This document shows, in pieces, positions 3,942-29,276 of a stretch of 53,258 nt of DNA; the first letter of the stretch is position 1; every line of letters begins with the position of its first letter. Made by a program: the position numbers and the translations under genes. Origin of the DNA: Bacilli bacterium (GTDB taxonomy: Bacteria > Bacillota_I > Bacilli_A > RFN20 > CAG-826). The notes under the pieces were generated by a model. That model was not told the DNA's origin and did no database searches. It saw nothing but the letters and a program-made list of their open reading frames with translations. The stretch is from the NCBI GenBank assembly GCA_041652475.1, contig JBAZHG010000004.1:1-53258 (forward strand), read 5' to 3'.

Positions 3942-3998
3942 TTCCCACTTTCTCCCACTTTATGACTTAATTCTATCGAGGCCGTTTGATTTTGTAAA
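3942..3998 (-). promoter_or_regulatory. mraZ promoter (-35 TTTACA, 17-nt spacer, -10 TAGAAT) followed by phased MraZ-box-like direct repeats
   Basis: Read on the minus strand: TTTACA(3998-3993)-17 nt-TAGAAT(3975-3970)-TAAGTCATAAAGTGGGAGAAAGTGGGAAATG. The 8-mer AAGTGGGA is repeated exactly at 10-bp phase (3943-3950 and 3953-3960 on plus), with a third degenerate AAGTCATA repeat. Confidence 0.55.
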
Positions 3999-4023
3999 GC
4001 GTTAGTTCCTACTTTTATAAATA

Positions 4024-4063
4024 ATTAAAAAGCGCTTCCCCGGCGAGGGCCGGACGAAGCGCT
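4024..4063 (-). terminator. Intrinsic terminator downstream of pheT
   Basis: On the minus strand, AGCGCTTCgtccggccctcgccgggGAAGCGCT (8-bp outer stem with an inner CCGGC/GCCGG stem) is followed by TTTTTAATT. Confidence 0.6.
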
Positions 4064-4092
4064 GGTTTCCGGATGGTGAATCCAGTGAAGGG

Positions 4093-6489
4093 CTAGACTC
4101 GGAAAGTCAGGTTGAAAGCCGTCGCCAAAGCGACTTTGACCCGTTCGATCACCTGGGCGCATTCGGTCTCGGTCAGGGTCTTCTTCTCATCGTTGATCAC
4201 GATCGAAAGGGCGAGCGACTTTTTGCCTTCGGGGACATGCTCGCCAGTGTAGACATCAAAGATGAACACGTCGCGGATCAAGTCCTTTTGAGTTTTCCTG
4301 ATGACTTTCAAAATAGCTTGGGCTTCGACGCTTTGGTCGATGACGAAAGCCAGGTCGCGGGTGACGGCCGGATATTTTGATAGCGGGCTCATCTTGGTGG
4401 CCGAGACCCGAAGGTTCAAGACATAACCAAGATCGATTTCCAGCATGACGACCGGGGCTTTCTTGAAGTCGAATCGGCTATAGGCTTCTGGTGACAATGT
4501 GGCGATGACGCCGACCTTTTGATTGTCAATCAGGATGCTGGCGCTTTGCCCCGGATGCAGTTCGGCGCTATTATCGGCCAATCGTTCGTAGCGATAACGT
4601 CCGGCGTCGATGCCGAAGGTGGTCATCACGGCTTCAAACAGGCCCTTGGCGTCATAGAAATCGTATGGCTTGGTCGCCAGTTGGCCCCGAAGCGATTTTT
4701 CTCCGACCAAGACGAGGCCTAAGTGCGTGGCGAGGGTTTTTCTCGTTTCGATGCCACTGATTTCGAAAATGGCCAAGTTCTTGGTTTGGCGGGCGACGTT
4801 GTAGTTGGCCGCCTCCAGCAGCGAATGGGTGAGGCCGCCGCGCACGTATTCGTGCTCGTCGGTCATCGGGTTGCTGACTTGGAAAAGCTCATCGTGGTTT
4901 AGAAGTCGGAACTTGTCTATTTCCGATTGATGAAGCAAGGTGTAGGTCAACACTTCATGGAGACCGCGATTCAAAAGCAGCTGCCGCAGCCGTTCGACCT
5001 TGGCTTGCGAGGCGGTCAACCCCGTATGCAAGGCCGTCAAAGACGGCAGTTTCACTTCGATGTGCTCGAATCCGCGAATCCGGATCACTTCTTCGGTCAA
5101 GTCGGCGACCCCATCGATGTCAATCCGATGGGCCGGGACGATGGCGATCGGTTCCGGTTCGTCGATGATTTGGATTCCAATCCGATTCAGCGTGGCGCTG
5201 ATTTCCGCCGGTGTGAACTTGGTCCCTAAGCGGCGGTTAATGGTTTCATGAGCAAAGGGAATCCGTTTCAAACGGTGATCGACCAGATCGTGGGCGACCG
5301 TTTTCGAAAAGGATCGGTAACCGAGCACTTCGCCGATCAGGCTGATGGTCAAATCCAGCACGTCCTCGGCTTGATGGGGATTGATTCCCTTGATGAAGCG
5401 CTGGCTTGATTCCGACGGCAGGTTGAGCCGGATCGAAGTCTGGCGCACGGTCGGGCCGTAAAAATTCGCCGCTTCGACGGCGATGTTCTTGGTGGTTTCC
5501 TTCACTCCGGTCAGGGAGCTGCCCATGACGCCGGCCAAACAGGCGATGGTGGTTCCCGAGACGATTGAGAGGTCGCCGGGTTGCACCTCATAAGTCTTTT
5601 CGTCAAGGGCCAAGAACGGAGACTTCAGATCTTCGACGATGGTCAACCGGGGTTCTGGCAAGGCATCCAAATCGTAAAAATGAAGCGGTTGTCCGGTCAA
5701 GAGCATGACGTAATTCGAAATGTCGACGAGGGGACTGATCGGGCGCATGCCCAAGGCCAAAAGGGCTCGGGAAATATATTCCGGAGTGGAACCTTTTCCG
5801 ATTCCTTCGACGGTTCTGATCGAGAATTGCGGGCATTTTGCCGTTTTGACATTGACTTCAAAGGCCGGGGCATGCCCCTTTTTTTCAAGGGGGCGATGCC
5901 ATGGCTTCAACGGCCGTTCAAACAAGATCGAAAGTTCCCGGGCTACGTTGTAGACCGCCAAGGCGTCGGGCCGGTTGGCCAATACTTTGATCGTCAAAAT
6001 GACGTCGTCGAGTCCTAATAGGCTCAAAACGTCCTCGCGTCCGATTTCGGTTCCATGCGGCAGGACTTCGATTCCGTCGATCGATGCTTGCGAGAGCCGT
6101 TTCGGATCGACGCCGAGTTCGAGCAAAGAACAGATCATGCCGTGGCTTTCATGGCCGCGGATGGTTGATTTTCCGATGCGGACTTCGGCGAGTTCAGCCC
6201 CAGGCCGGGCCACGATCACCGTTTGCCCCGTTTTGACGTTAGGAGCCCCGCAGACGATCGGGACGATGCCGTATTTGACGCCAAGGTCGACTTGGCAGAC
6301 CGTTAAATGGTCGCTATTTTCCATCAAGCGGGCATCTTTGACGTAACCGGTGACAAGATGCGTGCCCACGGCTAAGGTCTCGACCGTTTCGACCTCCAAG
6401 CCGGCGTTCGTCAATTTGTCGGCGATGACGGAGGGTTCGATGCCGGACAAGTCGATGTATTGTTTAACCCAATTGAGTGATATTTTCAT
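4093..6489 (-). CDS. pheT: Phenylalanine--tRNA ligase beta subunit
   Basis: 798 aa, starting MKISLNWVKQYIDL. It has the tRNA-binding OB domain (CQVDLG...IVCGAPNV) and the B3/4 and B5 regions typical of PheT, and lies downstream of pheS. Confidence 0.95.
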   Translation of the reverse strand: MKISLNWVKQYIDLSGIEPSVIADKLTNAGLEVETVETLAVGTHLVTGYVKDARLMENSDHLTVCQVDLGVKYGIVPIVCGAPNVKTGQTVIVARPGAELAEVRIGKSTIRGHESHGMICSLLELGVDPKRLSQASIDGIEVLPHGTEIGREDVLSLLGLDDVILTIKVLANRPDALAVYNVARELSILFERPLKPWHRPLEKKGHAPAFEVNVKTAKCPQFSIRTVEGIGKGSTPEYISRALLALGMRPISPLVDISNYVMLLTGQPLHFYDLDALPEPRLTIVEDLKSPFLALDEKTYEVQPGDLSIVSGTTIACLAGVMGSSLTGVKETTKNIAVEAANFYGPTVRQTSIRLNLPSESSQRFIKGINPHQAEDVLDLTISLIGEVLGYRSFSKTVAHDLVDHRLKRIPFAHETINRRLGTKFTPAEISATLNRIGIQIIDEPEPIAIVPAHRIDIDGVADLTEEVIRIRGFEHIEVKLPSLTALHTGLTASQAKVERLRQLLLNRGLHEVLTYTLLHQSEIDKFRLLNHDELFQVSNPMTDEHEYVRGGLTHSLLEAANYNVARQTKNLAIFEISGIETRKTLATHLGLVLVGEKSLRGQLATKPYDFYDAKGLFEAVMTTFGIDAGRYRYERLADNSAELHPGQSASILIDNQKVGVIATLSPEAYSRFDFKKAPVVMLEIDLGYVLNLRVSATKMSPLSKYPAVTRDLAFVIDQSVEAQAILKVIRKTQKDLIRDVFIFDVYTGEHVPEGKKSLALSIVINDEKKTLTETECAQVIERVKVALATAFNLTFRV

Positions 6490-6494
6490 ATTGG

Positions 6495-7526
6495 CTATCC
6501 TTTCACGAATTGCTTGATGAAGCGGATATCGTTTTGGTAGATGCGCCGGATGTCGTCGATCCCATAGCGAAGCATGGCCACGCGCTCGATGCCAACCCCA
6601 AAGGCGAATCCCGACCAGACCGCGGGGTCATACCCCGACATCTTTAAGACGTTGGGGTGAACCATCCCGGCTCCGAGTATTTCAATCCAACCGGTCCCCT
6701 TGCACATGGAACAGCCCTTGCCGCCGCATTCGCTGCAGCTGACGTCGACTTCGACGCTTGGTTCCGTGAATGGGAAATAACTGGACCGGAAGCGAATTTC
6801 GCGCTTGGGTCCAAACAACTTCTTGATGAATTTATCCAACGTGGCTTGCAGATGGCCGAGATTGATGTCCTTGTCGACCAACAAACCTTCGATTTGGGCG
6901 AATTGGTGGGAATGGGTGGCATCGTCGTCGTCCCGGCGATAAACTTTGCCGGGGCAGATCATGCGGATTGGGTGCCCGGAGGACTGTTCCATCGTGCGGG
7001 CCTGGACTGGGGAAGTATGGGTTCTTAAGAGCCGGACCGGATCGATGTAGAACGTGTCCTGCATGTCGCGGGCCGGGTGGTCCTTAGGGATGTTCATCAA
7101 TTCGAAATTGTAATGGTCGCTTTCGACCTCGGGTCCTTCGACTACTTGGTAGCCAAGGGCGATCAAAATCGAAATGATGTCGTCTTTGACGATGTAAAAC
7201 GGATTGCGAACGCCGGGTTCTTCCGAGGAGCCCGGCAAGGTGATGTCGATTTTCTCGGCTTCGTAACGGATCCGGAGAGCCTCTTTTTCAAGGGCAACCC
7301 GCTTGGTTTCGAGCCACGCTTCGATTTGGGTCCGGGCCTGGTTGATCAATTGGCCGTAGGCGGCTTTGAGCTCGGCCGGGACGTCGCGCATCTGGGCGAA
7401 AAGGCCCATCAATTCCGATTTTTTGGACAGGTAACGGTTGCGCGACTCCTGAAGGTGCGCTTCCGTGGCGATCGCGGCGACCGCGCTTTGGGCTTCGGCC
7501 AGGATCCGATTGATGATTGTTTCCAT
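6495..7526 (-). CDS. pheS: Phenylalanine--tRNA ligase alpha subunit
   Basis: 343 aa. Class II aaRS motifs are present (HPARDMQDTFY, ...RTHTSPVQ..., FGVGIERVAMLRYGIDDIR). Confidence 0.95.
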   Translation of the reverse strand: METIINRILAEAQSAVAAIATEAHLQESRNRYLSKKSELMGLFAQMRDVPAELKAAYGQLINQARTQIEAWLETKRVALEKEALRIRYEAEKIDITLPGSSEEPGVRNPFYIVKDDIISILIALGYQVVEGPEVESDHYNFELMNIPKDHPARDMQDTFYIDPVRLLRTHTSPVQARTMEQSSGHPIRMICPGKVYRRDDDDATHSHQFAQIEGLLVDKDINLGHLQATLDKFIKKLFGPKREIRFRSSYFPFTEPSVEVDVSCSECGGKGCSMCKGTGWIEILGAGMVHPNVLKMSGYDPAVWSGFAFGVGIERVAMLRYGIDDIRRIYQNDIRFIKQFVKG

Positions 7527-7529
7527 GAG

Positions 7530-7760
7530 ATACCCCCTAAAAAATAAAAAAAGTCATTCCTAAGGAACGACGTCGCGCCGTGGTGCCATCCTATTTCGTA
7601 AAAAGGTTTTACGCACTAAGGTATTAACGCTACCAACGGGACTTCGTCCATACTCGGAGGTGAATTCGCCCGGGCGCCTTGCGAGTGGTTCCACTGGTCA
7701 CTCTTCCCTATCAATTAACCGCTGGGCTACTACGGCTCGTCAACGTATATGGCTATTATA
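7530..7760 (-). promoter_or_regulatory. T-box leader (Phe specifier UUC) with extended -10 promoter and terminator/antiterminator
   Basis: On the minus strand: TGATATAAT (-10 at 7760-7755); specifier loop ...GCGAAUUCACC... (UUC at 7664-7662 followed by a purine); conserved T-box AATAGGATGGCACCACGG (7595-7578); terminator GTCGTTCCttaGGAATGAC (7571-7553) plus TTTTTTTATTTTTT. Confidence 0.85.
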
Positions 7761-7779
7761 TCAAATCAAGATGAATAAA

Positions 7780-8517
7780 TCAGCGGTATTTCATATCGTA
7801 AAAGACGATTGCGGCCGCCATGGCCACGTTCAAGGATTCGATGTGGGCCATCGGGATGATGATCTTATGGTCCAAGCGGGCGACCAGTTCCGGGCGGAGC
7901 CCATGTCCTTCGGACCCGAAGAACATCACGCATTGATCGGGATAGCGGAAGTCCTTTAAAGGAACCGCCGTTTCGTCAAGCACGGTCCCGACGAAGCGGT
8001 AACCGCGGGTTTTCAATTCATGGAGATCTTCTTCGTTACCCTGGCGTGTCGCCACGCTGAAGAGGGCCCCTTGGCTCGCGGCGACCGTCTTTTGGTTGTA
8101 GCGTGAGGCGCATTCTTTCCCGAGCATCACTAAATCGATGCCGAAGGCGGCCGCTGAGCGAAGGATGGTCCCGAGATTGCCGGGGTCGTTGACCCCGTCG
8201 AGATAGGCGATGCATTTTCCCGATAGCGGGGCTTCATTCATCTGGCGGCACACGGCGAGAACATCCTGGGGGCTGACTTGCCCGCTCAGCTTCTGGATGA
8301 TGTGGTCGGGAACGATGATTTGGTCAATCTTGTCTTTTACGCCTTCAAGCGGTTTCGACGCGATGATCGTTTCGACATGATCGAATTGAAGCGCCATGGA
8401 AACGAGATGGTAACCGTACACCAAAAAGCTCGTTTCGCTGTCGGGCCCTTTGCCCGATTTCAGGGCATGGAGCCGCTTGATGAGGGGATTGGTGGCGCTC
8501 GTAATCGTTTTTATCAT
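7780..8517 (-). CDS. TrmH/SpoU-family RNA 2'-O-methyltransferase (YsgA-like)
   Basis: 245 aa. SpoU motifs are present: DGVNDPGNLGTILRSAAAFG, VMFFGSEGHGL, IPMAHIESLNVAMAAAIVFY. The position upstream of pheS matches B. subtilis ysgA, from memory. Confidence 0.8.
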   Translation of the reverse strand: MIKTITSATNPLIKRLHALKSGKGPDSETSFLVYGYHLVSMALQFDHVETIIASKPLEGVKDKIDQIIVPDHIIQKLSGQVSPQDVLAVCRQMNEAPLSGKCIAYLDGVNDPGNLGTILRSAAAFGIDLVMLGKECASRYNQKTVAASQGALFSVATRQGNEEDLHELKTRGYRFVGTVLDETAVPLKDFRYPDQCVMFFGSEGHGLRPELVARLDHKIIIPMAHIESLNVAMAAAIVFYDMKYR

Positions 8518-9161
8518 CGGTATTGACCTTTTAAGATTTTATCATGCTCAGAGCGATAATCAGGATAGTATTGGGTCAAAATCTCATAAAACTTTTTCGA
8601 ATGGTCGAAAGCGAAATGATGGGCCAGTTCATGGACGACGACCGCATCGATGATCGGAATCGCGTAATGGATCAAGCGCAAGGCCAAGGTAATGCTGTGC
8701 CGGGTCTTGTTGTTGCTGCCGAGACGGCCTTTCATCTTACGGACGACGACCTCGTAAGGCCGGTCGACCCCCATCACCCGTTCGTAATGACGGATTCGTT
8801 TGGTGAAAAACAGTTCGGCTTTCTTTCGCAGTTCTTTTTGGAAATCGGCGGCGAGATAATCGTCGAGGGGATCCGGGAAGATCGTCGATAGATACGCATC
8901 ATGGTTACCGGCCTTGTGGCCGAGAAAGTACACGTGGCGGCTGGAGATGGCTTCATCTTTGATCAGCAGCGGTTTCAATTTTGGCCAATGCTTGGTGACC
9001 GTGCTTTTGATGATCGAAAGCGGGACCCCAATCGGGGCATGGACGATGAGGCGGCCGGGTTCCGGCTTGATGGTGATCCGGCGCATGGCCTTGCGGGTCA
9101 AGACGACCGGAAAGCGGCGTCCCTCGCATTCGATTTCGGTCATAGATTTCATGCCCTTCAT
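8514..9161 (-). CDS. YgjP/DUF45-family (SprT/WLM-like) zinc metallopeptidase
   Basis: It carries the HELAHHFAFDHSKKFY zinc motif (HExxH). The track ORF (to 9350) is trimmed because its 5' part overlaps the opposite-strand gene at 9208. Start candidates are the ATGs at 9161, 9152 and 9143; 9143 has the best SD-like GAAGGG. Confidence 0.7.
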   Translation of the reverse strand: MKGMKSMTEIECEGRRFPVVLTRKAMRRITIKPEPGRLIVHAPIGVPLSIIKSTVTKHWPKLKPLLIKDEAISSRHVYFLGHKAGNHDAYLSTIFPDPLDDYLAADFQKELRKKAELFFTKRIRHYERVMGVDRPYEVVVRKMKGRLGSNNKTRHSITLALRLIHYAIPIIDAVVVHELAHHFAFDHSKKFYEILTQYYPDYRSEHDKILKGQYR

Positions 9162-9207
9162 TTTAACAAGTTTCGAAGGCGGCGTCTCGTGGTAATATAA
9201 TGTCATC

Positions 9208-9699
9208 ATGAAATTGACCGTCCGCCAAATGACTTTAGCCGCGCTATTGACCGCCTTGACCTTCGTTTTGACGGCGTTCGTCCATGTACCACTCAGCATA
9301 GGATACTTCAATCTCGGGGATATCATCGTCTTGTTCTCGGCCATCTTCATCCATCCGATCTTCGGAGCCTTCGTCGGAGCGATCGGGGCCAGTTTGGCCG
9401 ATCTTTACGGGGGCTACTTGTTCTTCATCCCGTTCACCATCGGGGCCAAAGCCCTCGAGGCGATCGTGGCCGGATATTTGTTCCGCAAGATAAAAACCCC
9501 ATATTCCTATGGGGCTTTATTGATCGGGGCGGCCTTGATGGTGGCCACTTATGCCGTCAGTTATTTAATCTTCGATCCGACCGGAGCCATGCTCGCGGCC
9601 ACGATCCCGTTCGATTCGTTGCAGGGATTGGCCGGGGCCACCGGGGCGGCGCTATTATACATCGCCATCGCCCCGCATCGGGCCCGGCTGCGCCTTTAG
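9208..9699 (+). CDS. ECF-transporter S-component-like integral membrane protein (substrate unknown)
   Basis: 163 aa with about 5-6 predicted TM helices, Gly/Ala-rich. The N-terminus TLAALLTALTFVLTAFVHVPLSIGYFNLGD resembles PF12822-type S components. No adjacent ECF A/T genes or riboswitch. Confidence 0.5.
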   Translation: MKLTVRQMTLAALLTALTFVLTAFVHVPLSIGYFNLGDIIVLFSAIFIHPIFGAFVGAIGASLADLYGGYLFFIPFTIGAKALEAIVAGYLFRKIKTPYSYGALLIGAALMVATYAVSYLIFDPTGAMLAATIPFDSLQGLAGATGAALLYIAIAPHRARLRL

Positions 9700-10784
9700 C
9701 GGAATTTCGTTTCTTTAAGTTCCTTGACGACGTTGGCGTCGATCGCCTGAACCAGTTTCGTCAATAAATCGACCGTGGCTACATAGTCGTCGTAGTTGAT
9801 GATCGAGACGTGGCTGTGGTAATAGCGGCACGGAATCGAAAGGGTCATGGTCACCACCCCGTCGAATTGTTTGTGGATTTCCCCGCTGTCGGTCCCGCCG
9901 GCGGTCATGATGTCATAGGTGTACTTAACGTTATTCTCTTTGGCGATTTTTTCGACAAAGTCGAAGAGGCCCCGGTGGGCAATCACGCTCCCGTCCATGA
10001 TCGACAGGGCGACGCCGGCCCCGAGTTTGGTGTCGTTTTTGGGGCTGGTCGGCAGATCGTAGCTCATCGTGACGTCGATGGCAAAGGCGATGTCCGGCTT
10101 GACGTGGTAGGCGGCCGTCCGCGCGCCGCGGAGCCCGACTTCTTCTTGGACGGTGCCGGCGGCCACGACCGTGGCTTTATGCTTGATTCCTTTGAGGTTG
10201 CGCAGGGCTTCAATTCCGGCGGCGACCCCGAGGCGGTTGTCCCAGGCTTTCCCGAGCAGGCTCTTGCCGTCGTTTAAGACCCGGAATTCGGTATATGGGG
10301 TAATCATGTCCCCGATTTTGATGCCAAGGGCTTCGACCATGGCTTTGTCGGTGACCCCCAAATCGAGGTACATGTCTTTGATTTCGAGCACTTGCTTGCG
10401 CATTTCCGGGGACATGCCGTGGGGCGGCTGGGCCCCGATGACGCCGGTGATCCGTTTGCCGGACCTGGTCGTGATCGTCATCACCTGAGCCAAGATGACA
10501 TGGCCCCACCAGCCGCCGAGCGGATGGATGCGGATCATGCCCGAATCTTCGATTTTGTGGACCACGAAGCCGACTTCGTCCATGTGGCCCGATAGGAGGA
10601 TGGTCGGTTGTCCCGGATCGCCTTCCTTGTAGGCGAGGAAACTGCCGAGGTTGTCGAATTCGACCCGATCGGCATAGCCTTCGACCATCTTGGTGGCCAG
10701 CTGGGCGACTTCCTTCTCGTGGCCGGGGATGCCATTCGCTTCGCTGAATTGTTTCAAAAAGCTCAAACGTTCTTCTCTTGTCAT
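9696..10784 (-). CDS. M42-family metallo-aminopeptidase (glutamyl aminopeptidase/YsdC-like), copy 1
   Basis: 362 aa. Family-typical motifs: NGIPGHEKEVA, LSGHMDEVGFVV, KAWDNRLG, QEEVGLRGA, GGTDSG. Confidence 0.85.
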   Translation of the reverse strand: MTREERLSFLKQFSEANGIPGHEKEVAQLATKMVEGYADRVEFDNLGSFLAYKEGDPGQPTILLSGHMDEVGFVVHKIEDSGMIRIHPLGGWWGHVILAQVMTITTRSGKRITGVIGAQPPHGMSPEMRKQVLEIKDMYLDLGVTDKAMVEALGIKIGDMITPYTEFRVLNDGKSLLGKAWDNRLGVAAGIEALRNLKGIKHKATVVAAGTVQEEVGLRGARTAAYHVKPDIAFAIDVTMSYDLPTSPKNDTKLGAGVALSIMDGSVIAHRGLFDFVEKIAKENNVKYTYDIMTAGGTDSGEIHKQFDGVVTMTLSIPCRYYHSHVSIINYDDYVATVDLLTKLVQAIDANVVKELKETKFR

Positions 10785-22000: not shown

Positions 22001-22074
22001 CCGGGCACGTCGAAACTGACAAAACCACCAATTTCGTCGCCGAAAAAATCACCATCATCGAGGAACATCCGTGA
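19027..22074 (+). CDS. dnaE: DNA polymerase III alpha subunit, DnaE type
   Basis: 1015 aa. PHP-domain N-terminus FTPLHIYTSYSFL, the palm PDIDIDF, FNKSHSVAYA, and a C-terminal OB fold. Confidence 0.95.
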   Translation: MFTPLHIYTSYSFLQSGFTVAHLVNALKEKNFRAAAITDYQVLFGLPEFFSEAAKQQLDAIPGLDITFNQELITLLAIDETGYRNLIQITSALSREPLKAEFLKEHRDGLLAAVSTKQGQIPELFNSDQAAIPAVLAQLDAVFPGLYLGLEIYTSSDGDLADHLREVAKKYNYETIAFPFVKYHKSSDAIILKITHAIAHDETIDEHEEAGPYYLYELEQIEERYTPEEIALTSLLASQVKFKFAQKRGALLQFPKGKNQSAAKILRELAIVGLQKRAIDFTNIEYLQRLDYELRMIDEMGYSDYFLIVSDYVNHARTNGIPVGPGRGSAPGSLVGYALEITDVDPIKYQLLFERFLNPSRKTMPDIDIDFADIRREEVIDYLRQKYGSERVANIITFQTIQAKQAIRDIGRVYKFSPRTIEAMAKSLPDSKLDLRTAFKRIPAFKNVVLADKECLEIVKLATRIEGLIRQSGMHPAGVVLNDEDIRLSLPVIENNGNLITQYEMDYLEDQGFLKMDILGLRNLTIVDNCLKLIKENHGVDLSMNAIPYTDPKIFDLIRSGLTMGLFQLESDGMRRAIKEIKPTSFDDIVVLLAIFRPGPMDNLASYAARKAGTENASILDAQLNDILMPTYGIIIYQEQIMQIAERMAGFSLAEADLFRRAVSKKDAEKLRELQENFVEGAIRKGYHQAHAVSVFNHIYKFADYGFNKSHSVAYAVLACQMAYLKVYYPYEFYAAILETSNAINDTKFSYYIEELQQLKVTIANPDVNQSNLSFSVHNQKLYFPLNAIRGISADMASRIVEERELNGPFKSFYEFITRLYTDKITPKQIEHLVDAGAFDAIHKSRATLRASIGNGLQNAAIHSALDEQPESLIKNNIPSARLVNAADDMIDNVDRELEALGVVLSASPYKHKKALLRGYNLTPISEAKDSKGSLTIGGIIRARKVIKTKSGQPMAFMTVYDDTGDIEVIVFPRSFADVATQLDKNRLVVIAGHVETDKTTNFVAEKITIIEEHP

Positions 22075-23198
22075 AACGGCTGACGATTATCGACGGCAAT
22101 TCCCTCCTGTTCCGAGCCTATTACGCCTCGGCCTACCCCGGCACCACCTTGATGCGGACCAAAGACGGCATCCCGACCAACGCCATCTACATTTTCGCCA
22201 ACATGTTGGTGCGAATACTCGCGGATATCGTGCCGGATGACGGCCTTTTGGTCGCCTTCGACACCGGGGCGAAAACCTTCCGTCACCAACAATTGGAAAC
22301 CTACAAAGCCCAACGCAAAAAAGCTCCCGACGAGCTAGTCGCTCAAATGCCGATTGCCCGCGAGCTTCTTTCGGCCTTGGGCGTATTCACCTTCGAGATG
22401 AACGGCTATGAAGGCGACGACGTGGCCGGAAGCGCCGCTTTTTTGGCTCATAGGCAAGGCCACGAAGTGCACCTTTACACCTCCGACCGCGACTTCCTTC
22501 AGCTCGTCAACACCACCATTAAGGTCCATCTGATCAAACGGGGGATGTCCGACATCCGGATCATGAACCGCGACCGCGTCATCGAAGAATACGGATTGAC
22601 TCCCGAGCAAATACCCGATTTCAAAGGCCTGTGCGGCGACGCCAGCGACAACCTGCCCGGCATCCCCGGCATCGGTGAAAAAACGGCCACCAAACTATTG
22701 GCCGAATACGGCACGTTTGAAGCCATACTCGCCCAAGCCGACGCCATCGGCGGGAAAATCGGCGCCAACTTGAAGGAGCACCAAGCCATCGGAGCCCTTT
22801 CCAAACAACTGGCCATCATCGATACCGCGATGAAACTGCCGTTTGCCTTGGACGACACGGTTTACCATGGATACGATTTCGAAACGGTCACCGCCTTCGG
22901 GGCTCGCTATGAGCTGAAGACGTTTTTGACCAAATTGCCGACCGGGTGGAGAGTCAACCAAGACGCCGTGGCCTTGGAAGTGCGCGAAGTGGCCTCCTTG
23001 TCCGCTTTCAAGCATCGGGGCGCCGTCGGGCTCTACTTCGACGCCGCCGGTGGCAACTATCACAAAAACGCCGTATATGGACTCGCCCTGAGCGGCACCG
23101 AAACGACCGTTTACCTATCGCTTGAAGCTGCCCGAAAAGATCCGGCCCTCCTGAGATTTTACGCGACGCGACCGTCACCAAATACGTTTACGACCTGA
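22071..23198 (+). CDS. polA: DNA polymerase I, N-terminal segment (5'-3' exonuclease plus start of the 3'-5'-exo-like domain); frame terminates prematurely
   Basis: GTG start overlapping the dnaE stop (GTGA). FEN motifs are present: LTIIDGNSLLFRAYYA, YKAQRKK, GYEGDDVAGS, GDASDNLPGIPGIGEKTA. The reading frame is lost near 23126-23155. Confidence 0.85.
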   Translation: MKRLTIIDGNSLLFRAYYASAYPGTTLMRTKDGIPTNAIYIFANMLVRILADIVPDDGLLVAFDTGAKTFRHQQLETYKAQRKKAPDELVAQMPIARELLSALGVFTFEMNGYEGDDVAGSAAFLAHRQGHEVHLYTSDRDFLQLVNTTIKVHLIKRGMSDIRIMNRDRVIEEYGLTPEQIPDFKGLCGDASDNLPGIPGIGEKTATKLLAEYGTFEAILAQADAIGGKIGANLKEHQAIGALSKQLAIIDTAMKLPFALDDTVYHGYDFETVTAFGARYELKTFLTKLPTGWRVNQDAVALEVREVASLSAFKHRGAVGLYFDAAGGNYHKNAVYGLALSGTETTVYLSLEAARKDPALLRFYATRPSPNTFTT

Positions 23199-24664
23199 AA
23201 ACCACTTACGTCTATTGCCACCGGTTCGGACTGCCACTTTCCGGTCCCTATGTCGACTTGCTTCTGGCCGCTTATACCTTGGATACCTCTTCGAACACCG
23301 CCCCTGAAGCGATTCTTAGCCTGTATGGGGCGAACTTTGCCCTCGAGGACACGGTCGATCTCTTGGAAGCCGGCCAACCGATTTACGCCGGCCAAGTCGC
23401 CTATTTCATGCCGCGCCTGTGGAACAAACTCGAAGCCGAACTCCACATCAAGGACGGCTTATCGATTTTCTATGACGTCGAGATGCCATTGGCCCTCGTC
23501 CTCGCCAAGATGGAACTTGAGGGTTTTCCGATCGATGGCAAACTCTTGAGCGAAATCGGGGCTTCCTTCAAGGAAAAGCTCGACCAAGCGACCCAGCGCG
23601 TCTATGAGGCGGCCGGGCACGAATTCAACGTCGCCTCGCCCAAACAAGTGGCCGCCGTCTTGTTTGACGAACTGGGATTGCCCAAGAACCGCAAGGGTTC
23701 GACCGGAGCCGACGTTTTGAAGTCACTTTCAAATCTTCATCCGCTGCCATCATTGCTCCTCGAGCACCGCAAGTACGCCAAGCTCCTGTCGACCTACATC
23801 GACACTTTGATCGACCATATCTATCCCGACGGCAAGCTTCACGCCGTCTTCAACCAGGCCTTGACGAGCACCGGGCGCCTTTCAAGCACCGACCCGAACC
23901 TCCAAAACATCGCCCTGCGCGACGAAGAAGGCCGTTTGGTGCGCCAAGCGTTTTATTACCCGGATCCTAACTACGTCTTGATGTCCTTCGATTATTCGCA
24001 AATCGAACTGCGGATTCTCGCCCACTTAAGCCATTGCCCGGCTTTGATCGAAGTCTTCAACCGCGACGAGGACATCCATGCGGCCACGGCCAAGCGGCTG
24101 TTCGCCCACGAAGGGGAAATCACCTCATTGATGCGCCGGAGGGCCAAAGCCGTCAATTTTGGGATCATCTACGGCATTTCCGATTGGGGTCTTTCGGAGC
24201 AACTCGAAATACCGCCCCAAGAATCGCGGCAAATCATCAACGCTTTCTATGCGGCCTATCCCGAGATCAAGCAATACATGATCGATTTGGTGGATCAAGT
24301 CCAGAAGAATGGTTTCGTCACCACCTTGACCGGCCGGCGCCGCTACCTCCGGGAAATCCACGACAGCAACTACCAAACCCGGGAATTCGCCAAGCGGGCG
24401 GCCATGAACGCCCCGATCCAGGGCACGGCCGCCGATCTCATCAAACTGGCCATGATCAAAATCGACGACGAGCTCACAAGCCGCAAGTTGGCGAGCCGCC
24501 TTGTCTTGCAGATCCACGACGAATTGGTGTTCAAAGTGCCGCTTGATGAAATCGAAATCATCAAACCTTTGGTTTTGCGGACGATGGAAAACGCCCTTCC
24601 CCTCAATGTCAAGCTCCAAGTGGTGGCCACCCAAGGCCGGACTTGGTACGATTTGAAGGATTGA
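23126..24664 (+). CDS. polA: DNA polymerase I, C-terminal segment (polymerase domain), in the -1 frame relative to the N-terminal segment
   Basis: The frame is open from 23126, but the first start-type codon is the TTG at 23258 and it has no SD. Family A motifs are present: DYSQIELRILAH (motif A), RRRAKAVNFGIIYG (motif B), QIHDELVF (motif C). The sequence EILRDATVTKYVYDLKTTY continues the upstream ORF if 1 nt is restored. Confidence 0.85.
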   Translation, partial: SCPKRSGPPEILRDATVTKYVYDLKTTYVYCHRFGLPLSGPYVDLLLAAYTLDTSSNTAPEAILSLYGANFALEDTVDLLEAGQPIYAGQVAYFMPRLWNKLEAELHIKDGLSIFYDVEMPLALVLAKMELEGFPIDGKLLSEIGASFKEKLDQATQRVYEAAGHEFNVASPKQVAAVLFDELGLPKNRKGSTGADVLKSLSNLHPLPSLLLEHRKYAKLLSTYIDTLIDHIYPDGKLHAVFNQALTSTGRLSSTDPNLQNIALRDEEGRLVRQAFYYPDPNYVLMSFDYSQIELRILAHLSHCPALIEVFNRDEDIHAATAKRLFAHEGEITSLMRRRAKAVNFGIIYGISDWGLSEQLEIPPQESRQIINAFYAAYPEIKQYMIDLVDQVQKNGFVTTLTGRRRYLREIHDSNYQTREFAKRAAMNAPIQGTAADLIKLAMIKIDDELTSRKLASRLVLQIHDELVFKVPLDEIEIIKPLVLRTMENALPLNVKLQVVATQGRTWYDLKD

Positions 24665-24666
24665 AT

Positions 24667-26097
24667 ATGCCGGAACTACCCGAAGTCGAAACCGTCCGCC
24701 GGCTCTTGGAACCGGCCATCATCGATCGAACGATCGCCCAAGTGACCGTCCATTATTGGCGCATGGTCCAATCGGACCACGCCCGTTTTGTCCCGACCTT
24801 GGTCGGACGCACTTTTAAAAAAATCGATCGCGTCGGAAAATTCCTCGTTTTCAGGTTCGATACCGATTTGATCATGATTTCGCACCTGCGGATGGAAGGT
24901 AAGTTTCTGGCTCTCAAGGGCCATGAGCCCGACAGCGATTATGCCCGGGTGGTTTTCCATTTTACCGACGGCGGCAAGCTCGTCTATGACGATTCGCGTT
25001 GCTTCGGGATCATGAAACTGACCACGTCCGATCGCTATCTATGCGAAGAACCGCTGACCAAAGTCGGCCCGGAACCCTTCGTGATCGAAAGCGCTGAGGG
25101 ATTATGGTCGGCCTACCGGAAGTCGACCCGCCCAATCAAAGAACTCTTGTTGGACCAAACCGTGATGACCGGACTCGGCAACATCTACGCCGACGAGGTC
25201 CTCTTCAAAGCCAGAATCCATCCGGAGTTGCCTGGAAACCTCTTGACGCTGAAAGAGGCGAAACGCCTCCTTGAATATTCAAAAACGGTTTTGGCCGAAG
25301 CCATCGAAGCCGGCGGGTCGACGGTGCGGACTTATCATGCCGCCCAGGGGGTCGACGGCCGCTTCCAGCAAAAGCTTTTGGCTTACGACCGCGGTGGCGA
25401 ACCCTGTCTCCGCTGCGGCCACCCGCTCACGAAAATCAAGGTCAAGGGCCGGGGTTCGACTTATTGCCCCCGCTGCCAAATCAACCGGGCGATTCCTCTC
25501 GTCGTCGCCGTGACCGGGACGATGCATTCGGGCAAATCGACCCTGCTCCACATCGCCGCGGAACGCGGCTATCCGGCTTTGTCAAGCGACGCCTTGGTCA
25601 AAGAACTATATGAAGAACCGGGGAGCCTTTCGAAGCTCGAGTCGATCATCAAGGCCCCTTTCCCGAACCATCAATACGAATCCGGATGGGTTTTACACGC
25701 CATCCTTAAGGATCCCAAGACGAAAAAACGCCTGGAGAAATGGGTCCATCCCACCATTAAGAAGCGCGTCTTGGCTTGGATTGCGCGCCAAAGGGCAAGC
25801 CACGTCTTCATCGAGGTTCCGCTCCTTTATGAAGCCGGATGGGACGGTTTCGCCCAGTATGTCATCGGAGTCAAAGTCGCGCCGGCGCTTCTTAGAAAAC
25901 GCATCGAGGCCGATTATCCGAATCCGGAAATGGCTCTGTCCCTGGCGGCCACCAACCAATTCCCGTCCTACGAAAAACGCGTCGATCGGCTTTTGGTCAA
26001 CGACGCGTCTTATGAAGTTTTTCTAGCCGAAGCGCGACAAGCGATCGAGGCGGCAATAACCGAATCAATAAAGGCCGCTCAGTCCGCCGACTTCTAG
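24667..26097 (+). CDS. Fusion protein: formamidopyrimidine-DNA glycosylase (Fpg/MutM) plus dephospho-CoA kinase (CoaE)
   Basis: 476 aa from MPELPEVETVRR, the catalytic Pro2-Glu3 N-terminus. It has the H2TH region and the C4 zinc finger CLRCGHPLTKIKVKGRGSTYCPRCQ. After a 6-aa linker (INRAIP) comes the CoaE-like LVVAVTGTMHSGKSTLL P-loop and about 190 aa more. There is no stop or start codon between the two modules. Confidence 0.82.
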   Translation: MPELPEVETVRRLLEPAIIDRTIAQVTVHYWRMVQSDHARFVPTLVGRTFKKIDRVGKFLVFRFDTDLIMISHLRMEGKFLALKGHEPDSDYARVVFHFTDGGKLVYDDSRCFGIMKLTTSDRYLCEEPLTKVGPEPFVIESAEGLWSAYRKSTRPIKELLLDQTVMTGLGNIYADEVLFKARIHPELPGNLLTLKEAKRLLEYSKTVLAEAIEAGGSTVRTYHAAQGVDGRFQQKLLAYDRGGEPCLRCGHPLTKIKVKGRGSTYCPRCQINRAIPLVVAVTGTMHSGKSTLLHIAAERGYPALSSDALVKELYEEPGSLSKLESIIKAPFPNHQYESGWVLHAILKDPKTKKRLEKWVHPTIKKRVLAWIARQRASHVFIEVPLLYEAGWDGFAQYVIGVKVAPALLRKRIEADYPNPEMALSLAATNQFPSYEKRVDRLLVNDASYEVFLAEARQAIEAAITESIKAAQSADF

Positions 26098-26964: not shown

Positions 26965-28205
26965 TTGGAGCCTGCCTTTTCTTTTTCGTAGGAAGCAATC
27001 AGAGCCTCGATGTCGACCGTTTCAGACGGAGCCGGCTCCGTTTCATCGGTCGGTGCCGAGGCGGCCTTCGGGGCTTTCTTGCGCTTGGTGGTCTTCAGTA
27101 AATACTCCATGGCGTCGACGGCCGAACGGACTTGAGCCCGGGCCAGCGAAGAGGCGACCTTTTCCACCAAAGCCCGGGGCAAGGTCAAATCGGCGATCTC
27201 GAGGACGAAATCCAAGAGGGCGTTGATGACCGGGAACGGCAGCCGGTAATTTTCCTGGATGTCGCTGATCAATTTCAAATCGGCCGGGGTCGGGGCCGTG
27301 TTGTGGTTGCGGTATCGCAAATAGTTTTTCGGATCGGTTTCTTCCATCAAGCGGATTTTCTGAGCCTTGGAAGTGGCGCTTGTGACCTTGGTTAGGCTGC
27401 GGCGCCGGGTTTTGGCGAAAGCGAACTTCGTCTCGAGGGCAGCCATCTCCCGCAGTTTGTCGAAATCGACGATGGTGTGGCCGTTGGTGACGACCGCGGT
27501 CAAAAAGATTTCGGCCATGGCCAACTCGTCGATGCCGTATAAGTTGGCGATGCGATCGACTTCTTCGAGCACGGCGTCGGTCAAGACCTCCGGCTTCAAG
27601 GTGCTTTTTTTCAAGACCTCATCGGCAAAGCCGCGCCGGTCGAACCGGGATTCGGGATGGCCGCTTAAGTGTCCGATGAGTGGTTCTTTCGGGCTTTTTG
27701 CATACAGCGGATTGCTGAAATCGGGATGAAAAACTTCGCCAAAAGATGCCGAATCCTCCTCATAACCATCAAGTTCGCGGGGAGCCTGATAGCGCAACCG
27801 CAGCCGTTGGACCATGGCCGCGCCGACGTATTGCTCCAGTAAGCCGCGGAGAATCACGTCGTCAAAGAAAGCCGCGGGACTTTTCGGGGCGAATAATTCG
27901 AAGATATGCTCCTGATAATCAGGATGTGGCTTTGAATAGGTTTTCAGGAGTCCAACCGCTTCGAGGGTGGCTTTGGCCATCGACAAGTCGGCAATGGTGA
28001 TTTGCATGTGGTTGGTCAAGGTGTCGACCAGCCAGGGTTGGCCGTCAAGATGTAAATCCAAAAAGGCATCCAGCGTCAAAAACAAAGCGGCTCCGCGCTG
28101 GCCGATCAACGGTTGGTACAATTCGACGATGAGCCGCCGGTCGGCATCCGAGATCAGGCTCTGTCTCCGAATCAAGTAGAAATCATGCGTGGATAAGTAT
28201 TTCAT
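26961..28205 (-). CDS. dnaB: Replication initiation/membrane attachment protein, Bacillus DnaB type (DnaD-like domains)
   Basis: 414 aa. The N-terminus ...FYLIRRQSLISDADRRLIVELYQPLIGQRGAALFLTL is typical of DnaB/DnaD-family winged-helix domains. It is paired with dnaI, as in Bacilli. Confidence 0.78.
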   Translation of the reverse strand: MKYLSTHDFYLIRRQSLISDADRRLIVELYQPLIGQRGAALFLTLDAFLDLHLDGQPWLVDTLTNHMQITIADLSMAKATLEAVGLLKTYSKPHPDYQEHIFELFAPKSPAAFFDDVILRGLLEQYVGAAMVQRLRLRYQAPRELDGYEEDSASFGEVFHPDFSNPLYAKSPKEPLIGHLSGHPESRFDRRGFADEVLKKSTLKPEVLTDAVLEEVDRIANLYGIDELAMAEIFLTAVVTNGHTIVDFDKLREMAALETKFAFAKTRRRSLTKVTSATSKAQKIRLMEETDPKNYLRYRNHNTAPTPADLKLISDIQENYRLPFPVINALLDFVLEIADLTLPRALVEKVASSLARAQVRSAVDAMEYLLKTTKRKKAPKAASAPTDETEPAPSETVDIEALIASYEKEKAGSK

Positions 28206-28454
28206 CGGGTTCTCTAATATTTATAGCATATACCAGACCGATGGTATTTTAAACGTAAAAATGCGTGCCAAACGGATTAATTTTTGCTTTTAACTGTGAT
28301 GTTTTTTCCACATGGATGCCGGAAATGGCGTGCCCGGCACCACTTTCCGCGGTGGATAATTTATTCCTTGCGCCATCATCAGGGACCGGAAATTATTTCT
28401 ATTGTGATTGCTAAGCGTTTTTGCTAGGATTTTATTGGTTTAAGAGGAGAATCC

Positions 28455-29276
28455 ATGAAACACTTCATGCTTGACGCTTACGGTGTCAAACACAACAACC
28501 TCAACGATGTCAAGCACATCCAGAATACTTTAAACGAAATCACGGCGCGCCTGAAACTGAACCCTGTGGCACCGCCGTTTTTATTGCCCTATTATTACGG
28601 GGTTGAGCCCGAGGACATCGGCGTCAGTGCCTTCGTGTTCCTGCGGGGCGGCCATTTGACGATTCATACCTTCCCCTTGTTGGCTTGTTATTTCGTGGAT
28701 TTGTATTCCCCCGACGATTTTTCCGAAACCAAGGCCGAATCCCTCTTCTATGACAACTGGGAGTTCGACAAGGAAAAATCCAACGTCGTCACCGTCGATC
28801 GGAGCATCGGCCGCGAGGAAGTCATCGCCTTTGAACCCCAAGACATCTTCGGCCCCCACGTCCTCGCCCGGATGAAGGCCAAGAAGCCGGTTACCATGGA
28901 ATACGTATTCAAGTTCCTGGAGCAGTTGGTCCATGACGTCGACATGACGCCGATCATCCGCCCCTACGTCATCTACGACAACAACGACAAGCCGAGTTAT
29001 CTGTCCGGTTTGACCATGATCGCCGAAAGCCACATCAGCTTCCATTACAACCTGGCGACCGGCGACATCTTGTTCGACATCTTCTCCTGCAAGATGTTCG
29101 ATCACGCCTCGATTAAGAAAATCCTTAAGAAGAAAATGGCGGAAATCCCCTCCTTCGTCGTGATCCCGCGCGGGACCCGCCACCAATATTTGAAAGAAAG
29201 CCTCCGGAACAAACGTACCTTGTCCGAACGTATGAAAAAGTACAGCCTGGCCTGGAAGACCAACTCTTTTAAGTAA
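28455..29276 (+). CDS. Tandem-duplicated, fused pyruvoyl-dependent S-adenosylmethionine decarboxylase (SpeD/SpeH class 1)-like protein; pseudo-dimer with one intact Glu-Ser processing site
   Basis: 273 aa behind the strong RBS AAGAGGAG. The N half has KHFMLDAYGVKHNNLND...GVSAFVFLRGGHLTIHTFP...FVDLYSPDD. The C half has GPHVLARM...LSGLTMIAESHISFHYN...LFDIFSCKMFD. Both align by eye to the SpeD/SpeH pattern G.H...E..GC....L.D...GVSGVVvisESHltIHtwPE.GYa..DvftCG. The ES-H and Cys are kept only in the C half (E191-S192 at 29025-29030). The N half has GG in place of ES and Pro in place of Cys. Confidence 0.7.
   Translation: MKHFMLDAYGVKHNNLNDVKHIQNTLNEITARLKLNPVAPPFLLPYYYGVEPEDIGVSAFVFLRGGHLTIHTFPLLACYFVDLYSPDDFSETKAESLFYDNWEFDKEKSNVVTVDRSIGREEVIAFEPQDIFGPHVLARMKAKKPVTMEYVFKFLEQLVHDVDMTPIIRPYVIYDNNDKPSYLSGLTMIAESHISFHYNLATGDILFDIFSCKMFDHASIKKILKKKMAEIPSFVVIPRGTRHQYLKESLRNKRTLSERMKKYSLAWKTNSFK

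Follow-up and report, generated by a model that had tools for sequence, protein, structure and literature searches.

Organization of the locus

The stretch of DNA under study (the window, 53,258 nt in full) carries an open reading frame (ORF) whose 273-aa product contains two modules with the fold of S-adenosylmethionine (SAM) decarboxylase (AdoMetDC), joined in a single chain. The features of the gene are collected in Table 1. The motifs that an earlier note on this DNA had read from the ORF, namely RGGH, E191-S192 and the C212 of DIFSCK, were found to be quoted correctly, as were their coordinates. More than 120 homologs with lengths of 258–294 aa share the two-module architecture, so the ORF is not an artefact of assembly. 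Elsewhere in the window, polA has a putative frameshift around position 23150. Purifying selection is strong on both modules of the two-module gene, the dN/dS (omega) of the whole ORF against its relative L012 being 0.038 and the values for the N-terminal module (N-module) and the C-terminal module (C-module) being 0.026 and 0.058, respectively.

The strong ribosome-binding site noted earlier upstream of the gene (AAGAGGAG, with a 5-nt gap to the ATG) was confirmed, and its GAGGA core is kept in the related loci L012–L015, which together with the window's own gene are referred to here as the window clade. Conserved features further upstream resemble a promoter and DnaA-box-like motifs, with the candidate promoter scoring under the threshold of a consensus scanner. 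The same note had also described an unexplained structured region upstream. This was not borne out, as there was no Rfam match at gathering thresholds in the whole window nor at E ≤ 1 for positions 28150–28500, and the folding z-score of the region was only −1.7; a riboswitch or structured leader was rejected on these grounds.

Table 1. Coordinates of the two-module gene, its modules, key residues and upstream signals in the window.
Feature	Position	Strand	Basis
Candidate promoter: TTGTGA, 17-nt spacer, TG-c-TAGGAT (extended −10)	28402..28430	+	Conserved block, alignment of five relatives
Shine-Dalgarno AAGAGGAG	28442..28449	+	Sequence; 5 nt before ATG
Two-module ORF, ATG start, 273 aa plus stop	28455..29276	+	ORF list, sequence
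N-module, aa 1–126, catalytically degenerate: no pyruvoyl Ser, no Cys	28455..28832	+	Pfam, family conservation
S58, equivalent of T. maritima S55, predicted donation to live site	28626..28628	+	Alignment, PMC1282579
R64-G65-G66-H67 at Glu-Ser-His position	28644..28655	+	Aligns to T. maritima E62-S63-H64
H71-T72-F73-P74-L75-L76-A77, N-module counterpart of HTWPE	28665..28685	+	Alignment of 121 homologs
P86 at catalytic-Cys position (T. maritima C83)	28710..28712	+	hhalign pairs with C212
C-module, aa 127–245, predicted catalytically competent	28833..29189	+	Pfam, family conservation
E191-S192, predicted self-cleavage site	29025..29030	+	Aligns to T. maritima E62-S63; cleavage predicted
H197-Y-N-L-A-T-G-D, degenerate HTWPE-equivalent of C-module	29043..29066	+	Alignment
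C212 in DIFSCK, equivalent of T. maritima C83	29088..29090	+	121/121 homologs
C-terminal tail, aa 246–273, with invariant W267	29190..29273	+	W267 in 121/121; pLDDT 64–84

Module architecture and residue pattern

That a single chain holds two AdoMetDC-fold modules, as the note had proposed, was supported by profile searches of each half and by structure prediction. Against the Pfam family PF02675 (AdoMet_dc), the whole protein scored 87 bits with two stretches matched, and each half alone passed the cut-off of 25 bits (residues 1–132 with 54.3 bits, E=1.9e-14; residues 133–273 with 36.7 bits, E=5.8e-9). Profile–profile alignment of one module with the other (hhalign) gave a probability of 97.7% (E=1.5e-12) over 107 columns at 12% identity, pairing the GGH of the N-module with the ESH of the C-module and P86 with C212. 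The AlphaFold2 model, for which an alignment of 119 sequences was used as input, has a mean pLDDT of 91.2 and a pTM of 0.90 and recovers the AdoMetDC fold, with one secondary-structure pattern present twice. Using Foldseek, it was matched to the AdoMetDC of Thermotoga maritima (1tmi, 1vr7, 1tlu; target TM 0.80, rmsd 1.8 Å) and to human AdoMetDC (1msv, 1jl0) over approximately 300 columns with a probability of 1.00, at a global TM-score of 0.40–0.43. The protein is therefore a member of the PF02675 fold superfamily, with a profile score above the gathering score and a fold like that of solved AdoMetDC structures.

The catalytic residues of the T. maritima enzyme are S63, H68 and C83, the last acting as proton donor (PMC10407285). 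This Ser/His/Cys set is present once in the protein, as S192, H197 and C212, with the N-module counterparts being G66, a retained H71 and P86. Position 65 is Gly in 120 of 121 homologs and position 66 is Gly in 108 (Ser in 13), and with GG in place of Glu-Ser the N-module has no Ser for pyruvoyl formation. Position 86 is Pro in 72 homologs, Asp in 25 and Gln in 11. The description of this half as lacking both the pyruvoyl-forming Ser and the catalytic Cys was thus upheld, as was that of the C-module as retaining Glu-Ser-His (E191-S192-H193) and the Cys. Residues kept by the N-module are H3, D7, D54, G56, S58, H67, T69, H71, F73 and D82; of these, H71 and F73 occur in all 121 homologs and position 58 is Ser in 118 and Thr in three.

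Invariant residues of the C-module among the 121 homologs are F132-G-P-H135, M164, I167, R169, A190, S192, H193, H197, D208, F210-S-C212 and R239-G240, and S192, H193, H197 and C212 are also the same in more distant two-module relatives. Position 191 is Glu in 102 homologs and Gln in 19. In the stretch equivalent to HTWPE, positions 198–204 following the invariant H197 are variable, with Leu, Glu or Ile as the equivalent of the Pro. The C-terminal tail is missing from the more distant two-module relatives, which have lengths of 225–245 aa.

The nearest single-module relatives read FGPHLMLD...GISGFVxIAESHISIHTFP...DIFSCK. Compared to these, the N-module has kept HTFP and S58 without ES and the Cys, and the C-module is the reverse, with ES and the Cys kept and HTFP gone. 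In the AdoMetDC fold, Ser and Cys come from one half and His and Glu from the other half (PMC1282579), and such complementary losses would be explained by one of two shared sites having been lost. HYNLATGD had earlier been taken for the block on the substrate side of the live site. With the His/Glu strand coming from the opposite half, however, the live site near S192 would be lined by H71-T-F-P-L-L-A, and HYNLATGD is predicted to face the dead site.

We propose that the proenzyme adopts, within one chain, the arrangement of the prokaryotic homodimer. Self-cleavage between E191 and S192 would generate a large beta chain (residues 1–191, ~22.06 kDa) and a small alpha chain (residues 192–273, ~9.71 kDa before the Ser-to-pyruvoyl change), with the N-terminal Ser192 of the alpha chain being converted to the pyruvoyl group. 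The live site would then be composed of pyruvoyl-192 and C212 of the C-module with S58 and H71, the latter as the catalytic/processing His, both predicted by homology to be donated in trans by the N-module. The symmetry-related second site would be dead, with its Ser and Cys gone from the N-module and its HTFP block gone from the C-module.

A role as a pseudoenzyme without catalysis or as a regulatory subunit, comparable to the prozyme of trypanosomatid AdoMetDC, is highly improbable. One half of the chain is plainly degenerate and standalone degenerate single-module homologs are known, P0254 being one, but the C-module residues for processing and catalysis are all kept and are invariant in the 121 homologs and beyond, and such fixed Ser, His and Cys residues are not to be expected of a pseudoenzyme.

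Family, gene neighbourhoods and substrate

Genomes representing at least 448 species of Bacilli and Clostridia encode the fused architecture, among them common Bacilli of the gut (RF39, Acholeplasmatales and Anaeroplasmataceae types), and the fusion is therefore ancient. A BLASTP comparison of the two halves gave 15% identity (E=0.41), for which reason a recent tandem duplication was rejected. The suggestion of a local duplication and fusion of speD likewise did not stand, with the modules being 12–15% identical and the fused form so widespread. This is a large and apparently undescribed family of the Firmicutes, the members of which are currently labelled "S-adenosylmethionine decarboxylase" or "hypothetical". 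A phage or mobile origin was also rejected, as tblastn against 50,697 phage records gave single-module SpeD homologs only, at no more than 34% identity. In Clostridia, three large uncharacterised proteins precede the two-module gene. PADLOC gave no match for these or for the two-module protein, and a role of the latter in a defence system was rejected, save possibly for this clostridial operon.

Gene neighbourhoods were drawn from the 80 best-scoring loci of the 448, of which 78 were counted. In 49 of these 78, the gene directly upstream, in the same orientation, encodes an agmatinase, a frequency that may differ family-wide, with gaps mostly of −4 to +9 nt, and in three further loci an agmatinase heads the same cluster. 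Neighbouring agmatinases scored 199.5 and 192.3 bits against TIGR01230 (cut-off 174.3), identifying them as agmatinase and not arginase. In some loci the agmatinase/two-module pair has an ABC transporter for polar amino acids next to it, and in the distant relative P0188 the two-module protein is naturally fused to a PAD_porph/agmatine deiminase domain (267 bits).

These partners bear on whether the protein could be a bona fide S-adenosylmethionine decarboxylase (SpeD) producing decarboxylated SAM for spermidine, with the fusion as a mere structural variant. The Pfam family is AdoMet_dc, some sources label the relatives accordingly, and the protein has the catalytic Ser, His and Cys along with P74 of the HTWP-like block. 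Location has also been considered, as speD of Bacillus subtilis presumably lies near dnaB; our literature search found no paper on speD–dnaB synteny in this species, and most family members are found next to agmatinase and not at a dnaB-type position. Against this reading, which we consider quite improbable, the protein scored 62 bits with the equivalog model TIGR03330, below its cut-off of 75.65. Neither module has the ribose-binding Glu of AdoMetDC (L75 and A201 stand in its place), and none of the 121 homologs has it in the N-module, where position 75 is Phe, Leu or Tyr; SAM is therefore unlikely as the substrate. The Pro of HTWPE, a marker separating AdoMetDC from arginine decarboxylase (ADC), is fully conserved in true AdoMetDCs (PMC10407285), but at the equivalent position 74, 64 of the homologs have Pro and 57 have Ser. 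No aminopropyltransferase gene (speE) was found in the 53-kb window, in agreement with the earlier note, nor among recurrent neighbours within 10 kb at the 78 loci, where the main partner is agmatinase.

Doubt over SAM and the plausibility of arginine, both raised earlier, were thus supported. Adjacency to agmatinase, the deiminase fusion of P0188 and the missing ribose-binding Glu all argue for arginine, and the activity of the family is likely that of an arginine decarboxylase with agmatine as product. The reading that we favour, with a probability of roughly two in three, is that of a single-chain pseudo-dimer of class 1b AdoMetDC-like modules with one active site, functioning as a pyruvoyl-dependent decarboxylase that most likely converts L-arginine to agmatine. 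In most relatives, agmatine would then be converted to putrescine by a translationally coupled agmatinase. An ornithine decarboxylase of the SpeDC type was rejected as the main reading, since the diagnostic residues are missing and the partner scores as agmatinase and not arginase. Where SpeDC has its signature (Q...ETS...GHF...Y; PMC10407285, Fig. S5), the protein reads T187...A-E-S192...H197-Y...L206, and only the Tyr is shared, by 80 of the 121 relatives and not by the window's protein.

In the window's own clade, the substrate is less certain than in the family, because an adjacent agmatinase is missing and R76/E77 have been replaced. Polyamine genes, those for agmatinase and agmatine deiminase included, were found neither in the 53-kb window nor within 10 kb of the gene at L012–L015, and a tblastn search of the window with 52 agmatinases revealed no remnant, the best hit (E=0.028) lying elsewhere in the window. 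The closest outgroups of the clade, L016 and L017, have the order dnaB< agmatinase> X> pfkA> (X being the two-module gene). Position 76 is Arg in 113 of 121 homologs and Leu in the window clade only, where the near-invariant R76/E77 have become L76/A77 (HTFPLRE to HTFPLLA), which could reflect a changed substrate or altered regulation.

A shift of substrate or role within this clade (towards ornithine, lysine or some other amino or guanidino acid) is unlikely on balance, as is the alternative that agmatine is here an end product not bound for putrescine. Such a shift would follow from the loss of the adjacent agmatinase that L016 and L017 carry at the same position, the changes at 76–77 are beside the predicted live site and confined to the clade, and purifying selection on the gene is still strong. 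However, all catalytic residues and most other conserved residues are as in the family, the ornithine decarboxylase signature of SpeDC is missing, and an agmatinase could be located elsewhere in the genome. A second clade without adjacent agmatinase keeps R76, so loss of the linkage does not call for a new activity.

The single-site model of the arginine decarboxylase leaves two residues of the C-module unaccounted for, H197 and S184, which are invariant although expected at the dead site. A rather unlikely extension of the model would have the dead site serve as a second functional pocket, perhaps allosteric or effector-binding, with the agmatinase loss of the window clade and its R76L/E77A changes marking a new specificity. 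The dead site may be functional in that the residues lining it (H67, D7, S184 and H197) are invariant and the omega of the N-module is below that of the live module. Human AdoMetDC, which has a putrescine site, would be an analogue for an allosteric role. Should either the pocket or the clade specificity prove true, the family would represent an independent replay, in reversed order, of eukaryotic AdoMetDC evolution, with a regulatory or catalytic innovation of its own.

Comparison with known systems

The AdoMetDC-fold pyruvoyl enzymes offer a textbook example of how a homodimer whose sites are shared gave rise, in eukaryotes, to a fused asymmetric monomer. The parallel drawn in the earlier note with the one live and one dead half of the eukaryotic enzyme, arrived at independently, was supported: this outcome, with complementary residue loss, has arisen again with the opposite module order and likely a different substrate. 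If the family are indeed arginine decarboxylases, they would represent a further independent origin of ADC activity from AdoMetDC and would give the small-genome bacteria that carry them the otherwise missing step with which putrescine synthesis begins, and a systematic annotation error relevant to polyamine production in the gut would be corrected.

The best structural match of each module is to class 1b AdoMetDC (T. maritima TM0655, 1TLU/1TMI/1VR7; B. subtilis SpeD), with which the C-module shares ES-H...H...(T/S)C. Those enzymes, however, are homodimers of 125–130-aa chains with two equivalent sites and HTWPE, whereas here there is one chain, one predicted site and no HTWPE. Pyruvoyl arginine decarboxylases derived from AdoMetDC (SpeDA) are also known, such as that of Capsulimonas corticalis (WP_119321511; PMC10407285, PMC13625781). 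The fold, the Ser/His/Cys chemistry and the genomic clustering with agmatinase (speB) or agmatine deiminase are alike, and the association with agmatine-consuming enzymes (SpeB or AguA) is found in the family though not in the window. The characterised SpeDA enzymes differ in being single-module homodimers from other phyla, with no Bacillota among those mentioned in PMC10407285, while the present protein is fused and asymmetric.

Bacterial SpeD–SpeDC fusions were described from Desulfotignum phosphitoxidans (WP_006968726), Ca. Omnitrophica (KXK35843) and Victivallis vadensis (WP_116885763) and were proposed as a model for the fusion step (Li et al., 2023; PMC10407285). These too have two class 1b AdoMetDC-like modules in one chain of approximately 270–320 aa and, in the V. 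vadensis type, a single module able to self-process. Their live AdoMetDC module is N-terminal, however, whereas here the N-module is the dead one (GG, no Cys) and the C-module is predicted to be live. Their C-terminal module is an ornithine decarboxylase (Q...ETS...GHF) or a degraded remnant and their neighbour is speE, as opposed to agmatinase and hosts of the Bacillota here. Both modules of the published fusions, as read from an OCR'd figure, match profile positions 146–264 only and score 7–16 bits with the N-module profile. Membership in the SpeD–SpeDC family was rejected for lack of a colinear match, and the fusion described here is therefore independent.

The eukaryotic class 2 AdoMetDC (human 1JL0/1MSV, PF01536) is similarly an internally duplicated alpha-beta-beta-alpha sandwich with a single pyruvoyl site, to which one half contributes Ser and Cys and the other His, as proposed for the present protein. 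It is the N-half that is cleaved in the eukaryotic enzyme, whereas the predicted cleavage site is here in the C-module, so that the order is reversed; the two also differ in that the present protein matches PF02675 only, without a match to PF01536, and is missing the ribose-binding Glu.

Two AdoMetDC-like modules in one chain

The motifs and coordinates that an earlier note had reported for the fused gene were all present in the sequence, and its reading of an AdoMetDC fold in both halves held up under profile and structural comparison. The Pfam AdoMet_dc model (PF02675, cut-off 25 bits) matched the entire protein in two stretches with 87 bits, and the halves separately with 54.3 bits (aa 1–132) and 36.7 bits (aa 133–273). 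Using profiles made from 119 homologs, the N-module (aa 1–126) could be aligned with the C-module (aa 127–245) over 107 columns at 12% identity (probability 97.7%, E=1.5e-12), pairing G65-G66-H67 with E191-S192-H193, H71 with H197, D82 with D208 and P86 with C212. The AlphaFold2 model, built on a 119-sequence alignment (mean pLDDT 91.2, pTM 0.90), has one order of strands and helices that occurs twice. In a Foldseek search of the PDB, its top matches were the T. maritima AdoMetDC structures 1tmi, 1vr7 and 1tlu (target-normalised TM 0.80, rmsd 1.8 Å), and human AdoMetDC (1msv, 1jl0) was matched over ~300 columns with probability 1.00 and TM 0.40–0.43. These results confirm the two-module AdoMetDC-like architecture.

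A search of 5.8 billion proteins returned 132 relatives, every one of 258–294 aa and with identity down to 33%, while among genomes scanned at one per species, at least 448 encode a relative. The hosts among the matches listed were mostly uncultivated Bacilli, labelled Mollicutes, Acholeplasmatales, Anaeroplasmataceae or 'Staphylococcus sp. CAG:324', with Clostridia in addition. When 1.84 billion cluster representatives were searched exhaustively with a profile, 76 matched at E≤1e-30 and the total at E≤1e-3 was 3,496. All two-module relatives, including distant ones of 225–265 aa, have an N-module without Glu-Ser and Cys, and the C-module motif is (A/T)(E/Q)SH...H...D.FSC. An earlier proposal was that speD had been duplicated locally and fused; however, the two halves share only 15% identity by BLASTP (E=0.41), and this divergence together with the spread of the fused form across so many genomes indicates that the fusion is ancient. 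The 'dead' N-half is constrained as strongly as the live half, with dN/dS against the 93% identical relative at locus L012 being 0.038 over the whole gene and, module by module, 0.026 (N) and 0.058 (C).

Residue pattern and the predicted active site

Conservation was counted over 121 aligned homologs. In the C-module, S192, H193, H197, D208, F210-S211-C212 and R239-G240 are invariant, and 102 homologs have Glu at position 191 while 19 have Gln. At the Glu-Ser position of the N-module G65 occurs in 120 and G66 in 108, and position 86, equivalent to the Cys, is P, D or Q; H3, D7, D54, G56, T69, H71, F73 and D82 are invariant there and S58 is present in 118. Thirteen Clostridia homologs have N-G-S-H in the N-module, with the Cys likewise missing. 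Members of this subclade (P0049, P0059, P0069, P0083, P0087, P0088, P0098, P0102, P0103, P0106, P0110, P0116) have a Ser at the pyruvoyl position without the preceding Glu or the Cys.

When compared to the nearest single-module relatives (FGPHLMLD...GISGFVxIAESHISIHTFP...DIFSCK), the N-module has retained HTFP and S58 and lost ES and Cys, whereas the C-module has retained FGPH, ES and Cys and its HTFP is degraded to HY(N/F)x. Such complementary losses are the pattern expected if one of two shared sites was lost. Processing and catalysis in T. maritima AdoMetDC need S63, H68 and C83 (PMC10407285). The eukaryotic enzyme has its pyruvoyl Ser and Cys in one half and its catalytic His and ribose-binding Glu on a strand of the other, the prokaryotic protomer being the union of both residue sets and the sandwich two protomers (PMC1282579). 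By analogy, we infer a trans arrangement in which the live site would combine pyruvoyl-192 and C212 of the C-module with H71 and S58 of the N-module. On this layout H71-T-F-P-L-L-A should line the live site, and HYNLATGD, previously taken for its 'substrate-side' block, should face the dead site instead. Predicted processing would leave residues 1–191 as a beta chain (~22.06 kDa) and residues 192–273 as an alpha chain (~9.71 kDa). The model does not explain why four residues expected at the dead site are also invariant, namely S184 and H197 in the C-module and D7 and H67 in the N-module.

A standalone 131-aa single-module homolog, P0254 (L092 4001–5217), has SGGAH and FSSED, without Glu-Ser or Cys. 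It is encoded on a 1.58-Mb contig by a gene that runs into the start of an Arginase-family gene, and may represent a 'dead' partner subunit that stands alone.

Gene neighborhoods and the probable substrate

Three lines of evidence speak against SAM as the substrate. The B. subtilis-type AdoMetDC equivalog model scored 62 bits (cut-off 75.65), where HTWPE has its ribose-binding Glu, all 121 homologs have F, L or Y in the N-module (position 75) and the query has A201 in the C-module, and 64 members have the HTWPE Pro while 57 have Ser in its place, a Pro that never varies in true AdoMetDCs but does so in arginine decarboxylases (PMC10407285). An ornithine decarboxylase of the SpeDC type was rejected as the main reading, its signature Gln...Glu-Thr-Ser...Gly-His-Phe...Tyr (PMC10407285, Fig. 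S5 and text) being absent.

ORFs within 10 kb were clustered for the best 80 loci of the at least 448 genomes, the fused gene being called in 78. The same ~300-aa gene lies directly upstream on the same strand in 49 of these, with gaps mostly of -4 to +9 nt, and heads a five-gene cluster containing the fused gene in 3; a further 16 have the fused gene between dnaB and pfkA without it. Scores of 252 bits against PF00491 and of 199.5 and 192.3 bits against the TIGR01230 equivalog (cut-off 174.3) identify this gene as an agmatinase, the arginase and formimidoylglutamase models falling far under their cut-offs. The distant member P0188 (602 aa; L093 1221–3029) is a naturally occurring three-part protein in which the two modules are joined to a PAD_porph domain (267 bits), a domain of the agmatine deiminase family. 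The pair of agmatinase and fused gene at L019, L040, L052 and L054 adjoins a polar amino-acid ABC transporter (SBP_bac_3, permease, ATPase), which fits arginine uptake, and no aminopropyltransferase recurs among neighbors within 10 kb at the 78 loci. The agmatinase partner, the PAD_porph fusion, the transporter and the lack of both an aminopropyltransferase and the ornithine decarboxylase signature therefore favor arginine. Mainly from these gene neighborhoods, the family is most likely a pyruvoyl-dependent arginine decarboxylase, with agmatinase then making putrescine. We give odds of roughly two in three to the prediction that the fused protein is a pseudo-dimer with one active site that works as a pyruvoyl decarboxylase, probably on arginine.

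For the window's own protein the arginine assignment is held less firmly than for the family, given the missing agmatinase and a change at R76/E77. The window and L012–L015 (80–93% identity) have the fused gene between a divergent dnaB-dnaI pair and pfkA-pyk with agmatinase absent from the locus, as it is from the same dnaB/pfkA context in a second clade (L024 and eleven others). Because the nearest outgroups L016 and L017 (54–55% identity) have agmatinase between a reverse-strand dnaB and the forward fused gene and pfkA, the simplest history is that it was lost or relocated in the window lineage. No remnant was found in the 249-nt intergenic region or the rest of the window, and Pfam scans of 30 further window ORFs gave no polyamine genes. 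R76 is near-invariant (113/121), and it and the adjacent E77, beside the predicted live site, are replaced by Leu and Ala in the window clade only. A clade-specific shift is a live rival; strong purifying selection persists on the gene in this clade.

Several other arrangements were observed. In the second dnaB/pfkA clade, at L008 10001–11772, the fused gene's stop and the start of pfkA share 4 nt, an arrangement that suggests co-translation with the glycolytic pfkA-pyk operon. In Clostridia (L060, L073–L077, L081, L087–L089; ~3000–10000 each) the fused gene closes a conserved cluster of an agmatinase or TIR_2 protein, a ~748-aa protein, a ~301-aa KGGVGR-motif AAA ATPase and a ~747-aa protein, for which PADLOC gave no match. 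P0185 is another natural three-part fusion, of the two-module protein to a radical SAM domain.

Features of the fused gene and its upstream region
Feature	Position	Strand	Remarks
Fused two-module ORF	28455..29276	+	ATG start, 273 aa
Shine-Dalgarno AAGAGGAG	28442-28449	+	5 nt before the ATG
Candidate extended -10 promoter (TTGTGA, 17-nt spacer, TG-c-TAGGAT)	28402-28430		conserved block in alignment with L012-L015
Three DnaA-box-like 9-mers (one mismatch to TTATCCACA)	28188-28359		within 172 bp, in and beside the intergenic region between dnaB and the fused gene

An 'unexplained structured region' upstream had also been noted, but as an RNA element it found no support: Rfam gave nothing at gathering scores over the entire window or at E≤1 over 28150–28500, and the minimum free energy lay 1.7 sd under that of shuffles, 10 of 200 folding equally well. 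The candidate promoter, which a consensus promoter scanner did not call, lies ~25 nt before the ATG and so leaves scant space for a leader. The DnaA-box-like 9-mers are partly conserved in L012–L015 and possibly form a DnaA-binding cluster upstream of dnaB; their window-wide count is at chance level, only the clustering and partial conservation being notable.

Elsewhere in the window, polA (22071–24664) is split by a frameshift near 23150–23153, with residues 1–360 of the relatives' single 864-aa PolA on 22071–23150 and residues 362–864 on 23153–24661 in another frame. Either polA is truly split or a pseudogene here, or the assembly is wrong at this point. A single 484-aa ORF at 24643–26097 corresponds to a fusion of MutM (Fapy-DNA glycosylase) and CoaE (dephospho-CoA kinase), also present in relatives (Pfam list, L008 and L010).

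Comparison with known systems

Fused AdoMetDC-like pseudo-dimers are already known, namely eukaryotic class 2 AdoMetDC and the bacterial SpeD-SpeDC fusions of Omnitrophota, Desulfobacteria and Lentisphaerota, in some of which the second module is degraded (PMC10407285). Both carry the live AdoMetDC module at the N-terminal end, whereas here it is C-terminal. The SpeD-SpeDC fusions also adjoin speE, while the usual partner of the present family is agmatinase, and the two are not colinear, both SpeD-SpeDC modules (sequences read from Fig. S5) matching the live-type part of the profile only. SpeDA, the AdoMetDC-derived arginine decarboxylase, is described as a single-module protein from other phyla, with Firmicutes, Bacillota and Mollicutes unmentioned (PMC10407285); its activity is like that predicted here, but the present protein has two fused modules. 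No description of the family was found in the literature searched. Firmicutes of gut and environmental origin carry it widely, probably under a systematically wrong annotation, and it repeats a classic evolutionary transition independently and in the opposite order. The fused protein is thus predicted to work like SpeDA and has the build of a class 2 AdoMetDC in reverse, but fits the definition of neither group.
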